Below are positions 45,926 to 51,132 of a DNA stretch of 64,000 nucleotides, in pieces. The position numbers were made by a program, and so were the translations under genes. Below the pieces are notes generated by a model. That model was not told where the DNA came from, did not search any database, and saw only the letters and a list, made by a program, of their open reading frames with translations. Source of the DNA: Patescibacteria group bacterium (GTDB lineage Bacteria > Patescibacteriota > Patescibacteriia > Magasanikbacterales > GWA2-37-8); NCBI GenBank assembly GCA_028705565.1, contig JAQWDH010000001.1, positions 20,363 to 84,362 of the forward strand, given 5' to 3'. Within the stretch, counting starts at the first letter, position 1; each line of letters opens with the position of its first letter.

Positions 45926-46488
45926 ATCTCTCTTGTCATAAAAATCTCTCTTTTTAGGAGAGCCAAGTCCAAAATAAAATCGCGAAAGCAAGTTTGGACC
46001 TCTGGGTAAAGTCCTTAACGGACGCTTTAATATCAAATAAAAAATGTTACAGATATTAAATATTTACTTAGAGTGTTCAAGCGGCTGACGCCATACTTTT
46101 GGCGAATAGTTTTGAAGGCCGCTGTCAAGCGGTTCTTTATTTTTTAAAAATGATTTTGAACGGAGCAAAAAATTTTCGCGAATGAAAATTTTTTGCCTCG
46201 TTCAAAACGATTGAAAAGAATTGAGCGGGTGTAAGAACTTTGACAATCAATTAGTAAGTTTCAACAAAAAGGGTAGAACTCCCGCGCTGATTTTATTCGC
46301 GCGGGAAAAATAAGAAAGCACAATTTAGTGTTTTCGTAGTATGCAATTTTAACAAGAGCGCATGGCGGATGCCTTGACACCAAAAGACGATGAAGGACGC
46401 TGCAGGGTGCGATAAGCCTCGGAGAGGTCCCAAGCAACCTTTGACCCGGGGATTTCCAAATGGGGAAACCCGCCGGTGCGTAGCACCG

Positions 46489-46600
46489 GAATTTACCAAT
46501 TTACAATTTTCAATTTACAATCAACTCCAATTATCAATAATTTATTGAAAATTGCCGCATTGTAAATTTATTGAAAATAATTGAAAATTCCAGTGTTATG
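46489..46600 (+). other. 23S intervening sequence 1 (AT-rich CAATTT-repeat hairpin in the E. coli helix ~130-150 region)
   Basis: Insertion relative to conserved flanks GGGGAAACCC ... CTGAATACATAGG. Confidence 0.55.
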
Positions 46601-47154
46601 CATCGGCACTGTACACTGAATACATAGGTGTATGGAGAAGACCTGGCGAAGTGAAACATCTCAGTAGCCAGAGGAAAATAAATCTATAGAGATTCCCTTA
46701 GTAGTGGCGAGCGAAAAGGGAAAAGCTTAAACCATATAAGTGTTTCTTTGAGAATGATTGGTCTTAGGATTAGTCTAGTATTAAAGATTAAAGGGATAGG
46801 TCGTTGCTTATATGGGGTTGTAAGATATTGGCGCTGACTGCCTACTCAGTCAGATGATTGAATAACCTTCCTAGTAGAATGCTCTGGAAAGAGCAACCAT
46901 AGAGGGTGATAGTCCCGTACGCGAAAGGAGTTACAAAATCATAGCCGTTATTCTTGAGTAGGACGGAACTCGTGAAATTCCGTCCGAAGCCGGGCCGACT
47001 ATGGTCCAAAGCTAAATACTTTTGGTGATCGATAGTGGACAAGTACCACGAGGGAAAGGTGAAAAGCAGCCCGGAGAGGGCGATGAAATAGTATCTGAAA
47101 CCGTGCGTTTACAAAGAGCGGAAGGTCAACCACATCTCGCTTTGTTTGATGTGG

Positions 47155-47215
47155 AATTTCCAATTTCCAATTTATTTAGTTATTGATTTTTGGAGTTTGG
47201 TAATTCTTACACGTC
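47155..47215 (+). other. 23S intervening sequence 2 (GGAATTTCCAATTTCCAATTT... at the helix-25 region)
   Basis: Insertion at a classical IVS site; same motif family. Confidence 0.5.
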
Positions 47216-47757
47216 AAATGAAGTGAGATGTGGCGACCGACCGTGTTCCTATTGAAGAATGAGCCTGCGAGTGTATGTGTGCCGCTTTGCTTAAGGGCCT
47301 ATGGTCCGGAGGCGTAGCGAAAGCGAGTCTTAACGGGCGTATACCTTGTATCTTTATGGTGCGAGGTTTGTGGCACGTATATAACCCGAAACCGGGTGAG
47401 CTATCCATGACCAGGATGAACCCCGCCGAAAGGCGGGGGGAGGTCCGAACCCACGCGCCGTGCAACACGCGGGGATGAGTTGTGGATGGGAGAGAAATTC
47501 TAATCGAACTCGGTGATAGCTGGTTCTCCTCGAAATAGCTGTAGGGCTAGCCTCAAATGTTTCTATCGGTGGTAGAGCACTGGATGAAAATCGGGTCCTT
47601 CGGGATACCATTTTCAATCAAACTCCGAATACCGGTAGCCAAAATTTGGGAGTCAGACAGTGACGGCTAAGCGCCATTGTCAAAAGGGAAACAGCCCAGA
47701 TCGCAAGCTAAGGCCCCTAAATCCATGTTAAGTGTAACAAAGGTGGTTCTAGTTCTC

Positions 47758-47794
<37 letters not shown>

Positions 47795-47924
47795 TAAAGA
47801 AAGCGTAACAGCTCACTGGTCAAGAGTTTTAGCGCCGAAAATGTACGGGACTCAAACATGGTGCCGAAGCTGCGGACTATCCGTGCTTCACTAATGTTCA
47901 GCACAAATTTTCAAGTATCCTGCC

Positions 47925-48045
47925 TACCGGCAGGTAATTATCAATTTTCAATCAATTATCCAATTATCAATTTTTAAATTTCATTTTGGGTCATTAAAAT
48001 TTATTGAAAATTGTAAATTGTAAATTTTGTGGCGAGCGTTAGCGA
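47925..48045 (+). other. 23S intervening sequence 3 (helix-45 region, ~E. coli 1170)
   Basis: AT-rich CAATTATC/CAATTTT repeat hairpin between conserved blocks. Confidence 0.5.
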
Positions 48046-48552
48046 GGCACGGGTATTGGTAGAGGAGCGTTCCTAACTGCGCAGAAGTCCTAGGCGTGAG
48101 CCGGGATGGAGTGTTAGGAAGCGAGAATGCAGGCATAAGTAGCAAAAAGGCAGGTGAGAATCCTGCCCGCCGAAAACCCAAGGTTTCCTGGGCAACGAGA
48201 ATCGACCCAGGGTTAGCCGATCCTAAGGCCAGCCCGTCGCAAGGCGGGGTAACCGATGGAAGAGCTGGTTAATATTCCAGCGCTATATGCAGTTTGGTTT
48301 TTACTGCGCATCTTTAATTTTTAAGCGTGTTTTGGTTATACGCGCGCCGCAAGGCGGAGACAAAGCCCTCGGGTGGAGTCAACTTAAAATAACAAGGTGC
48401 CTAGAAAAGGTAAAAATCGTTAAGCTGCATGTAATCGTACCGTAAACCGACACAGGTGGGTAAGTCGAGTAGACTAAGGCGTATGAGAGAACCCTCGTTA
48501 AGGAACTCTGCAATACAGCGGCCGTAACTTCGGGATAAGGCCTGTCCGACCG

Positions 48553-48692
48553 TGCCTCACTGCGTTTGACGCGGAATGACCAATATAATTTTCAATTACC
48601 AATTTTCAATTTAAGAGTCCGACCGAGTCGGACACAATAGTTGATCATTGGAAATTGGAATTTGGAAATTCCGCCCGAGCATAGCGAGGTGC
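48553..48692 (+). other. 23S intervening sequence 4, a ~140-bp element (copy A)
   Basis: CCTCACTGCGTTTGACGCGGAATGACCAAT...GTCCGACCGAGTCGGAC...GGAAATTCCGCCCGAGCATAGCGAGGTGCGG. Confidence 0.6.
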
Positions 48693-48817
48693 GGTTGGAT
48701 TACAACAAAAGACCTCAAGCGACTGTTTACCAAAAACACAGCTCCCTGCAAAAGCGTAAGCTGAAGTATAGGGGGTGATGCCTGGCCAGTGTCAGAACGT
48801 TAAAGAGAGAGGTGAGC

Positions 48818-48957
48818 CGTACCTCACTGCGTTTGGTACGGAATGACCAATTTTCAATTACCAATTTTCAATTTAAGAGTCCGGTCGAGCCGGACACAAT
48901 AATTGATCATTGGAAATTGGAATTTGGAAATTCCGCCCGAGCATAGCGAGGTGCGGC
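48818..48957 (+). other. 23S intervening sequence 5, a near-identical second copy (copy B) of the 140-bp element in a different helix
   Basis: About 95% identical to copy A; separated by genuine 23S sequence (GACTGTTTACCAAAAACACAG). Confidence 0.6.
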
Positions 48958-49569
48958 GTAGCCTTGAACTGAAGCGCTGATGAACGCCGGCGGTAACTAT
49001 AACCGTCCTAAGGTAGCGCAATTCCTTGTCGGGTGAGTTCCGACGCGCATGAATGGTATAACGATTTGAGGACTGTCTCAACGAGGGACTCAGTGAAATT
49101 GCAAGGAAGGTGAAGATGCCTTCTACCCGCAACTAGACGAAAAGACCCCGTGAAGCTTTACTACAACTTGGCATTGGTATAAGGTTAAATATGTTCAGAG
49201 TAGGTGGAATCCCGACTTAGTCGGGAGACAATGAGACACCACCCTTACTTAATTTTATGCCTAATCTTCCGACTTGAATCAGCCGGAGGAGACAGTGTCT
49301 GGTGGGTAGTTTAACTGGGGCGGTTGCCTCCTAAAATGTAACGGAGGCGTTTACAAAGGTCAGCTTAGCTCGGATGGAAATCGAGCTGGACGTGCAAACG
49401 CAAAAGCTGGCTTTACTGCAAGGGCTACAACCCGAGCAGTCGCGAAAGCGGAAGTTAGTGAACCGACCATCCTATATAGGAAGGTGGAAGATCAACGGAT
49501 AAAAGCTACTCCGGGGATAACAGGCTGATCTAGCCCGATAGTCCACATAGACGGCTAGGTTTGGCACCT

Positions 49570-50420
49570 TAATACATCGGGGTGCTGCAGTAGTGATACT
49601 GCACCAAAAATTCGGCTTATAACGGTGAACCCGTCATTAAATGTATGGTATAATTAAAATAATAATCCATTTAATCGGCAACACCGTGGGAAGTCTTAAT
49701 CAAACACAAAAATCAATACTTATCGGAAGTCTCTTGGGAGATGGAAATTTGAGATTGGCAGAAGGAAAAACAAATGCTTTGTTTGAAGTAAATCATTCAA
49801 TCAAACAAAAATTGTATGTTGATTGGAAATATAATCAATTACGCCCATTCATTTTAACGGCTCCGAAAGCGAGAAGTTGTAATGGAAAACGAATTGCTTA
49901 TCGGTTTACGACACGCAGTTTGCCTGTATTTACTTCGCTCTACAGGGAATTCTACAGGGATAGTATAAAAGTAATTCCTTGTAATCTCACATTGACACCA
50001 TTAGCGCTCGCGGTATGGTTTATGGACGATGGCAGTAAAAGCCGTTCATCTATTTATCTAAACACGCAGCAATTCAACATTGAAGAACAAATTCGTTTGC
50101 TTCAATTATTGAAAAAGCAATTTAACTTGTCAGGCGCGCTAAATAAGGACAAGAAGTATTTTCGTATAAGAATAACATCGTCAAGCACAGCGCTATTTAA
50201 AGAAATAGTGCGGCCGTATGTTATAAAAATTTTTAATTATAAACTTGATTAATGACCCCGTAACGACTGACCCGAAAGGGGAGGTTCCGACCTTTTATGT
50301 CGGAACAACACGCCGACGCTTGTTTTACAAAAACCGAGATTATGCCGTTTAAGTCGGCTACGATCCGGAACAAGCAGAAGATATAGTCTACCCCATGAGA
50401 AATCATGGAATAATCGACAG
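49570..50420 (+). mobile_element. Group-I-type intron in the 23S rRNA (inserted after GGCACCT, near E. coli position ~2449) encoding a LAGLIDADG homing endonuclease
   Basis: Exon sequence GGCACCT | ... | CGATGTCGGCTCATC is interrupted by 851 bp containing the ORF; intron ends in G. Confidence 0.75.
49641..50252 (+). CDS. LAGLIDADG-family homing endonuclease (intron-encoded)
   Basis: Two LAGLIDADG-like motifs ([11 protein letters not shown] and [10 protein letters not shown]). Confidence 0.75.
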
Positions 50421-50467
<47 letters not shown>

Positions 50468-50480
50468 TGGCTGTTCGCCA

Positions 50481-50532
<52 letters not shown>

Positions 50533-50906
50533 CTATCTGTTGCGGGCGTTGAACATTGAGAAGACTCACTCCTAGTACGAGAGGACCGGAGCGGACGAAC
50601 CTCTAGTGTACCAGTTGTCCTACCAAGGGCATTGCTGGGTAGCTACGTTCGGCACGGATAAACGCTGAAAGCATCTAAGCGTGAAGCCGTCTTCAAGATT
50701 AATGTTCGTCATAGACTCCTTGTAGACTACAAGGTTGATAGGCGCTATGTGTAAGTTTAGTAATAAACTGAGCAGAGGCGTACTAATAAGTCAAGCATAC
50801 TACGAAAGCGCTAAGCGGTGCTTTTTGCACCCTTTTAAGTCCGCCCTGTCTGCCGACAGGCAGGCTTTGGCGGAAAGCCATTATAAAACAAAATTGAGTA
50901 TGAAGT

Positions 50907-50961
<55 letters not shown>

Positions 50962-51022
50962 CCCGCCAGAGGCGGGTCCGCCTTTGGCGGAAAGCCATTA
51001 TAAAACAAAATTGAGTATGAAG

Positions 51023-51132
<110 letters not shown>

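Follow-up and report, generated by a model that had tools for sequence, protein, structure and literature searches.

How did two nearly identical hairpin-forming sequences come to occupy two different helices of a single 23S rRNA gene? This question is raised by a 64,000-nucleotide (nt) stretch of a Patescibacteria contig (JAQWDH010000001.1, positions 20,363 to 84,362; hereafter, the window), in whose 23S rRNA gene an earlier note had pointed out two such inserts and suggested that the element had been duplicated or had moved within the gene. We find that the two sequences, here called copies A and B, almost certainly belong to a multi-site, rRNA-specific family, the members of which were met only in rRNA genes of uncultured bacteria, most probably of the candidate phyla radiation (CPR; Patescibacteria), and which is apparently undescribed. 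As the best overall explanation we favor, with some reserve, an rRNA-specific hairpin family that is copied between helix tips and cut out as an intervening sequence (IVS).

Two hairpin elements at the tips of helices 63 and 68

We mapped the inserts by aligning the window 23S gene to the Rfam LSU model and to Escherichia coli 23S rRNA (coordinates of all features are collected in Table 1). Extra sequence was found in helix 9 (H9), around E. coli position (Ec) 274-300, in H25, H45, H63 and H68 and in domain V; together, these multiple inserts make up the excess of about 1540 nt by which the 4465-nt gene surpasses the 2925-position bacterial model. At the site of copy A, 132 extra nt are present where the Rfam model has the 3-nt hairpin loop of H63, and at the site of copy B, 138 extra nt are present where the model has the 4-nt loop of H68. 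When the elements are taken out, the lengths of H63 and H68 equal those of insert-free CPR relatives (loci L038 and L089, with an H63 of 47 nt). The segment between the copies, which includes GACUGUUUACCAAAAACACAG, aligns to model positions ~1767-1894 with high posterior probability and is therefore, as the earlier note had maintained, genuine 23S sequence; it is unique and not a duplicated segment. That note had placed the copies at 48553-48692 and 48818-48957, which identifies the right elements with deviations of 1-3 nt at the ends. The CCTCACTGCG-like sequence that it had seen just before each copy, however, is part of the element's own 5' arm, where it pairs with ...AGCGAGG of the 3' arm.

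Copies A and B differ by eight substitutions and one 5-nt indel (ATATA), amounting to 94% identity over aligned columns, so that the description of two near-identical inserts in two different 23S helices holds. Several of the differences keep base pairs. In the apical hairpin, for example, GTCCGAC/GTCGGAC in A corresponds to GTCCGGT/GCCGGAC in B, with an A-U pair replaced by G-C, a C-G pair replaced by U·G and the pairing intact. Core patterns of 18 and 25 nt matched only A and B in the 64 kb, with 0 chance matches expected, and neither these patterns nor the covariance model described below detected a family copy in the 59.5 kb of the window outside the 23S gene. No open reading frame (ORF) is present in A or B.

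Each copy folds as a single long hairpin, the stem of which runs on into the pairs of the host helix. The minimum free energy is -64.4 kcal/mol for copy A (z = -8.7) and -71.3 kcal/mol for copy B (z = -11.1), as against only -51.0 and -58.5 kcal/mol, respectively, for the antisense strands; the sense RNA of both copies thus folds better by about 13 kcal/mol. The 5' basal arm of copy A can also form a local hairpin of 7 bp by itself, and that of copy B a perfect one (Table 1). Group I or group II introns were considered and rejected for both copies: no intron model matched at the gathering threshold or at E ≤ 10, and variable helix tips, a length of 140-145 nt and the lack of an ORF likewise do not fit an intron. 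An archaeal bulge-helix-bulge splice motif was rejected as well: it would require two 3-nt bulges separated by 4 bp, whereas the two irregularities of the basal stem are 1x1 mismatches separated by 3 bp.

Assembly of repeats within rRNA genes is difficult, and Logan contigs of the window organism break at the rRNA gene, which could be taken to mean that the duplication is an artefact of this metagenome-assembled genome (MAG). We regard this as extremely improbable. An independent metagenome contig (L146; Ga0265297_10004783), whose 23S gene is 99.4-99.6% identical to that of the window overall and 99.9% identical in core segments, holds both copies at the same helices and with the same copy-specific differences (the ATATA indel and the differences in the basal arms). 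At the same time, L146 is otherwise distinct from the window: it lacks the 851-nt LAGLIDADG insert of domain V, carries another insert in H45 and has one more unit of a 117-nt repeat of the 5S spacer. As L146 reproduces both copies, an assembly artefact is effectively excluded.

An rRNA-specific family with a conserved basal stem

An entire metagenome collection was scanned for the exact 5' arm CCGTRYCTCACTGCGTTYG, a 19-mer, so that only elements with this exact 19-mer were sampled. Of the 102 matches, 63 were followed at a distance of 57-236 nt by a AGYGAGGYRCGG-like partner. We discarded three of the 63 (L123, L125 and L137) as spurious, so that about 60 complete elements remained. The number of matches without a partner, about 39, is close to that estimated for chance matches to a 19-mer. 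All of the approximately 60 complete elements lie inside rRNA transcripts and in sense orientation, and A and B fit both arm motifs exactly in the same orientation and context. The earlier note had proposed to look for the element at other sites in related genomes, and it indeed occurs at many different rRNA helix tips. The sites in 23S rRNA are ~Ec228, 270, H25, ~1110, H45, 1405-1597, H63, H68, ~2135-2183 and ~2593, that is, at least ten helix tips. Three further sites, ~Ec69, 454 and 1058-1148, are in 16S rRNA, as confirmed with the Rfam SSU model, and one member is situated in a pre-23S leader (Table 1). A scan of viral contigs gave two matches, both without a 3' partner, which we take to be due to chance.

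Alignment A5 of 34 distinct members, from which we built a covariance model (R1), defines a sharply bounded unit that runs from 5'-CCGU to GCGG-3'. Its ends pair in a basal stem of about 25 bp, CCGURYCUCACUGCGUUYG... / ...GAGCRUAGCGAGGYGCGG, after which we named the family the CCGUR-CUCACUGCG basal-module hairpin. The last 18 nt are nearly invariant. The consensus basal stem comprises 20 pairs with 90% of cells paired, and two of the pairs covary (pair 5/228, AU 23, GC 7 and GU 4; pair 6/227, CG 28, UA 4 and UG 2). Non-canonical positions are conserved as well (A10·C in 29 of 34 members, G13·U in 31, U4·G in 30 and U16·G in 30), and the search pattern left their 3' side free. This conservation persists although the 23S cores of the hosts are only about 76-80% identical to that of the window, which is a sign of sequence-specific selection acting on this module, of horizontal spread or of the two combined.

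The 5' arm can, in addition, pair with itself in a local hairpin, CCGURYC-N11-GRYACGG, in which 94% of cells are paired and positions 5 and 6 covary with positions 21 and 20 (AU 18 and GC 11 at one pair, CG 27 and UA 6 at the other). Where near-identical copies differ, they do so chiefly at the positions of this local hairpin, and in unrelated CPR inserts each arm is likewise itself a hairpin. A four-way-junction fold of the base was rejected as equilibrium structure, being 22-27 kcal/mol less stable than the extended hairpin. The local hairpin should therefore be transient, and we speculate that it forms during transcription, before the 3' arm exists. Equally speculatively, the two-fold symmetry might point to a site recognised by a dimeric protein, RNase III for instance.

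The interior consists of 7-8-nt AT-rich repeats, often topped by a small GC-rich hairpin. Its length varies, from next to nothing in minimal elements of 65 nt to more than 200 nt. An instance of such variation is the Ec270 copy: that of L144 (65 nt) equals that of L117 (115 nt) with 50 internal nt removed. The two interior arms differ in composition (5' arm, 15.6% C and 4.6% G; 3' arm, 21% G and 3.4% C), and among the interior pairs U·G outnumbers G·U by 192 to 70. This arm asymmetry and the excess of U·G over G·U indicate selection on the sense RNA.

Searching the window with model R1 returned copies B (123.8 bits) and A (105.5 bits), followed by the inserts in H45 (65.7 bits), H25 (51.5-59.6 bits) and H9 (46.9 bits), and nothing outside the 23S gene. 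The first of the latter three is a diverged member and the other two are more distant relatives; these other inserts of the window share AATTTTCAATT-type repeat stems with A and B. The H25 insert scores 51.5 bits on the plus strand and 59.6 bits on the minus strand and folds with -53 kcal/mol, while the H9 insert starts with a 5' local hairpin, CCGGUGC-GUA-GCACCGG, that is followed by an AT-rich repeat stem. In the metagenome loci, R1 finds two to six members per rRNA gene in many contigs.

For taxonomically labelled hosts, we used a panel of 80 23S loci obtained by scanning genome contigs with the LAGLIDADG protein of the window. None of these loci is a close relative of the window (the best shows 62% protein identity), and the best labelled 23S relative is a Patescibacteria MAG with about 80% identity. 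Together with a gene of the type IV secretion system pilin type, found upstream in a Logan contig of the window organism, and with the wealth of rRNA inserts, which agrees with what has been reported for CPR bacteria (PMC11270868), this relative makes an uncultured CPR bacterium the most likely host. A Saccharibacteria MAG (L064) contains a true family member at another 23S position, with ends that are nearly those of A and B. In further labelled MAGs (Levyi-, Shapiro-, Davies- and Berkelbacteria and other Patescibacteria), R1 picks out hairpin inserts of the same design with a different basal sequence. In four of these loci (L031, L077, L079 and L032, from Levyi-, Shapiro- and Daviesbacteria and other Patescibacteria), both ends of the inserts form a local hairpin rich in GC (..GUGC-loop-GCAC..), to which GGAAAUUC and then 7-8-nt AT-rich repeat arms are joined.

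No Rfam family matches the element, and a literature search for the motif strings retrieved unrelated oligonucleotides only. IVSs as such, and abundant short ORF-less inserts in CPR rRNA genes (PMC11270868), are known already. What is undescribed in the searchable literature is a single sequence family with a conserved basal module that occupies many helices of both rRNAs, with several members per gene and recurrent near-identical intragenic copies.

Copying between helix tips

We compared interiors after removing the basal 25 and 24 nt. For 15 of the 32 elements of multi-copy genes, the closest relative resides in the same gene at another helix, and in only 4 of 54 cases does the nearest element in another host occupy the same site. 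The interiors are identical in the H25/domain III pair of L094 and share 94% identity in the Ec270/H25 pair of L103, 91% in the H63/H68 pair of the window, 88% in the Ec270/H45 pair of L155 and 87% in the H45/~Ec2593 pair of L098; a sixth lineage, L144, has a short Ec270/H45 pair with 96% identity. Shuffled or reversed interiors never exceeded an identity of 0.62-0.67. At least six lineages harbor near-identical copies (87-100%) in separate helices of a single gene, and similarity between elements ignores the insertion site. Moreover, the interiors of a 16S and a 23S copy from one contig (L106 and L132) are 85% identical. Identity between intragenic copies begins exactly at CCGT and ends exactly at GCGG.

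The A/B pair of the window is thus one instance of recurrent copying among rRNA helix tips, in support of the earlier note's suggestion of duplication or movement within the gene; that note had allowed for relatives without any sign of mobility, and such signs are abundant. The 94% identity of A and B very probably reflects recent intragenic copying, by duplicative insertion or by gene conversion, and for this pair the two cannot be separated. It is conceivable, if somewhat doubtful, that no movement was involved and that ancient, independent inserts in H63 and H68 were homogenised by gene conversion through the shared basal module. The shared 25-bp arms would supply homology for recombination, and intragenomic copies are more alike than same-site copies in other hosts. 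Site occupancy, however, differs between hosts (in L089, H68 is filled and H63 is short and empty; in other hosts, the reverse applies), so that sites must have been gained or lost, and at least 13 sites in two genes require that new loops were colonised at some point. Gene conversion is, besides, itself copying within the gene, and this alternative differs from our preferred explanation only with regard to the origin of the A/B pair.

The near-identical strain represented by L146 allows turnover to be observed on a short time scale. Its copy B is 100% identical to that of the window, and its copy A differs from copy A of the window at four positions. One of these is position 4, where C4 instead of U4 makes a C-G pair of a U·G; the remaining three are in the apical hairpin, where L146 has the B-type sequence, as would fit a short conversion tract. 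This comparison shows that the element evolves faster than the surrounding rRNA while its pairs are kept, through compensatory substitution or through short-tract conversion from B. In H45 of L146 (650-804), an unrelated sequence of about 155 nt replaces the insert found in the window. The absence of the LAGLIDADG insert from L146 makes this insert a presence/absence polymorphism.

How might copies be placed at new sites? The earlier note had proposed to inspect the flanks of the copies for target-site duplications, and none were found there. Across the flanks of 40 distinct insertions, we likewise detected no direct repeats or target-site duplications and no fixed tetranucleotide of the kind used as target by IS200/IS605 elements; instead, the two flanks can pair with each other and so lengthen the stem. 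These data bear on the idea that the family is a non-autonomous DNA transposon (a miniature inverted-repeat transposable element or a palindromic element of the IS200/IS605 type) with a transposase encoded elsewhere, for which rRNA loops are merely tolerant sites. Each arm forms a covarying hairpin, reminiscent of the subterminal hairpins of IS200/IS605 elements, the ends are sharp, the orientation is strand-specific, target-site duplications are lacking and there are multiple copies per genome, all of which would suit such a transposon. Neutral insertions, however, should survive in intergenic DNA, in which the metagenome collection holds 0 complete exact-motif elements, and the remaining 59.5 kb of the window likewise lack a further copy. 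No conserved 4-5-nt target precedes the elements, the flanks being mutually complementary instead. Selection at the level of RNA is indicated by the G·U pairs and by the 13 kcal/mol by which the sense strand folds better. We therefore consider a DNA transposon improbable.

Proposed fate of the element in the rRNA precursor and in the locus

The closest known relatives in kind are the classical IVSs of 23S rRNA, which are found in H25 and H45 of Salmonella, Yersinia, Campylobacter and Proteus, in H9 of alpha-proteobacteria and in H45 of Coxiella and Leptospira. Like these, the family elements add 90-430 nt at the tip of a 23S surface helix, form a long stem that prolongs the host helix and are sporadic and strain-variable in their presence; in addition, the window gene has relatives of the family at the classical sites H9, H25 and H45. 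Classical IVSs are confined to one or two fixed sites, whereas the present family occupies at least ten 23S helices, 16S rRNA and a pre-23S leader, with up to five or six members per gene and near-identical copies in different helices. Also unlike classical IVSs, the family elements keep the sequence of their basal stem, even at the mismatches, in hosts whose 23S cores share only about 76-80% identity with that of the window. The IVSs of Coxiella and Leptospira can carry an S23p-type ORF, which is absent from the family element, and excision, a property of classical IVSs, is for the family suggested by analogy.

By this analogy, we propose the following course of events. The element lies at the terminal loop of a surface helix of 23S or 16S rRNA, in sense orientation, and prolongs the host helix. 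It would be transcribed within the pre-rRNA and fold as one long hairpin, and the conserved basal duplex might then act as a portable site of cleavage by RNase III, an enzyme specific for double strands. The hairpin would be cut out without religation, leaving the 23S rRNA fragmented but functional, as with the classical IVSs of H9, H25 and H45. Excision by RNase III in particular is a reading toward which we lean slightly.

Several observations are consistent with this proposal. The elements represent extra sequence at a helix loop, their stem is continuous with the host helix, they are sporadic among close relatives, and they offer a basal duplex of at least 20 bp for RNase III-type processing. 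CPR genomes retain rnc (PMC12641178), and short ORF-less inserts of CPR rRNA genes have been called "probably IVS" (PMC11270868). CPR rRNA inserts have also been reported to be absent from transcripts, according to the statement in PMC11270868 that cites Brown et al. 2015. The retention of rnc, this reported absence, the free length of the interior and the presence of a member in a discarded leader support the excision reading.

Other points weigh against it. If all five members were excised, the window 23S rRNA would be left in six pieces, which to our knowledge exceeds the number in any well-studied bacterium. Stems that are simple substrates of RNase III need neither a conserved sequence nor self-complementary arms, and the covarying local hairpin of the 5' arm is not explained by a simple RNase III model. 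The 5' conservation is in part a matter of ascertainment, as 19 motif positions were fixed by the search pattern. Finally, no known mechanism would insert a DNA copy at so exact a position in a different rRNA loop.

Some of these difficulties would be avoided if the hairpins were retained as surface spikes of the mature rRNA, with the basal module binding a lineage-specific protein. No six-piece 23S rRNA would then arise, and conserved sequence with non-canonical pairs resembles a specific binding site more than generic double-stranded RNA. The elements, moreover, are situated at surface helix tips, in part the same ones (H25, H45, H63, H9 and 16S h6) that bear expansion segments in eukaryotes and archaea. 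Those expansion segments are retained, stable within lineages and not related in sequence between helices, whereas the family elements occur sporadically, differ in length and are exchangeable between helices. A stable orthologous presence at a given site is not what we observe: relationships are independent of site, occupancy is sporadic among hosts, and the H45 insert has been swapped between strains that are 99.9% identical. Interior length spans 65 to 236 nt and varies even between near relatives, as with the 50-nt internal deletion that distinguishes L144 from L117, and the minimal 65-nt form is reduced to the basal module. The reported absence of CPR inserts from transcripts and the copy in a pre-23S leader, which is discarded anyway, also argue against retention, which we rate as rather unlikely.

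A bolder version of the excision proposal is that the family constitutes a new rRNA-specialised selfish element, a self-contained "insert-and-excise" cassette, in which the two-fold-symmetric basal module ensures harmless removal from pre-rRNA. Such a cassette would colonise any exposed helix loop of 16S or 23S rRNA and spread between CPR lineages, by a mechanism that targets rRNA hairpin loops as such, possibly at the level of RNA or single strands, and the covarying local hairpins of the arms would be part of the insertion or folding mechanism. We put this forward only tentatively.

Of the known insertions in the same organisms, the "uncharacterized short insertion sequences" (shorter than 200 bp, ORF-less and not introns) of Tsurumaki et al. 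2024 (PMC11270868) are objects of the same kind. Many of them are found at sites that match H25 and H45, at the top or base of stem-loops (PMC11270868). That survey sorted inserts by length, intron model and ORF, and describes no sequence family, basal module, spread between helices or intragenic copies (PMC11270868). Group I introns with LAGLIDADG ORFs in CPR 23S genes, one of which may be present in the window gene, are likewise strain-variable rRNA insertions; unlike these, A and B have neither catalytic core nor ORF and sit in variable tips instead of the conserved core. Repetitive extragenic palindromes (REP), bacterial interspersed mosaic elements (BIME) and palindromic elements derived from IS200/IS605 are, like the family, short, non-coding, hairpin-forming, multi-copy and strand-specific, without target-site duplications. 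They are intergenic and genome-wide, in contrast to the family, which is restricted to rRNA transcripts and bears RNA-level signatures (G·U pairs and greater stability of the sense strand).

The present analysis gives many of the common, hitherto "uncharacterized" ORF-less inserts of CPR rRNA genes a sequence family, a covariance model and sharp boundaries, and it provides evidence for copying between helices and between 16S and 23S genes. Should the basal module act as a portable processing site, the tolerance of reduced genomes, with their single rRNA operon, to five or more inserts per gene would be accounted for, and heavily fragmented rRNA would be predicted in the host bacteria. The conserved module is a concrete test substrate for CPR RNase III, and the covariation of the local hairpin offers a lead to the mechanism of insertion or folding. 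In practice, such inserts break rRNA assembly, inflate the length of rRNA genes and can disturb the design of probes and primers as well as phylogenetic alignments.

Table 1. Coordinates of the hairpin elements and other features (window positions, unless a locus handle precedes them)
Feature	Coordinates	Strand	Remarks
Host 23S rRNA gene	46342-50806	+	Rfam LSU_rRNA_bacteria, 2209 bits, model positions 1-2925
Copy A, hairpin element, 145 nt	48550-48694	+	replaces helix 63 tip
Copy A, 5' basal arm CCGTGCCTCACTGCGTTTGACGCGG	48550-48574	+	family alignment A5, pair counts; contains CCTCACTGCG
Copy A, apical GC hairpin GTCCGACCGAGTCGGAC	48617-48633	+	read from sequence
Copy A, 3' basal arm CCGCCCGAGCATAGCGAGGTGCGG	48671-48694	+	same in A and B
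Single-copy 23S between copies, 122 nt	48695-48816	+	H63 3' strand, H64-H67, H68 5' strand
Copy B, hairpin element, 140 nt	48817-48956	+	replaces helix 68 tip
Copy B, 5' basal arm CCGTACCTCACTGCGTTTGGTACGG	48817-48841	+	perfect local hairpin CCGUACC/GGUACGG
Copy B, apical GC hairpin GTCCGGTCGAGCCGGAC	48879-48895	+	
Copy B, 3' basal arm CCGCCCGAGCATAGCGAGGTGCGG	48933-48956	+	
H45 insert, diverged member (CCGTGCTTCACT... / ...TAGCGAGGCACGG)	47881-48052; extra sequence ~47876-48055	+	model R1, alignment A2
H25 insert, more distant relative (CCACATCTCGCT... / ...GAAGTGAGATGTGG)	47130-47233; extra sequence 47133-47231	+	
H9 insert, distant relative	46473-46606; extra sequence 46475-46592	+	model R1
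16S family members	L106 583-767; L145 1177-1349; L126 5599-5746	sense	
Pre-23S leader member	L108 6347-6461		~20 nt upstream of 23S 5' end; precursor leader, not mature rRNA
Minimal 65-nt elements	L085 982-1046; L117 1207-1271; L144 66-130 and 1115-1179		basal module and short loop only
Same-design 23S inserts	L031 1050-1216 and 2858-3016; L077 106-278 and 808-936; L079 70-246 and 828-1006; L032 247-391		
LAGLIDADG insert, 851 nt	49570-50420; ORF 49641-50252		23S domain V, E. coli ~2499/2500, between GGCACCT and CGATGTC
5S rRNA gene	51025-51131		3' of 23S in window

The insert in domain V of the window 23S gene is of a different nature. Its ORF encodes a LAGLIDADG_2 homing endonuclease (Pfam E = 2.9e-45), and a weak match to a group I intron (26.4 bits) is located at 50169-50409. 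Extra sequence in domain I (46734-46853; ~Ec274-300) also folds as hairpins and does not match model R1.

No 16S rRNA gene is present in the 46 kb 5' of the 23S gene (window positions 1-46341); with no 16S gene upstream of the 23S-5S pair, the rRNA genes appear to be unlinked. Downstream of the 23S gene, a 97-nt unit occurs twice (50865-50961 and 50982-51078), 100% identical and 117 nt apart, that consists of spacer and the first ~54 nt of 5S rRNA. As the repeat includes the start of 5S, a truncated 5S pseudo-copy lies 5' of the real 5S gene.

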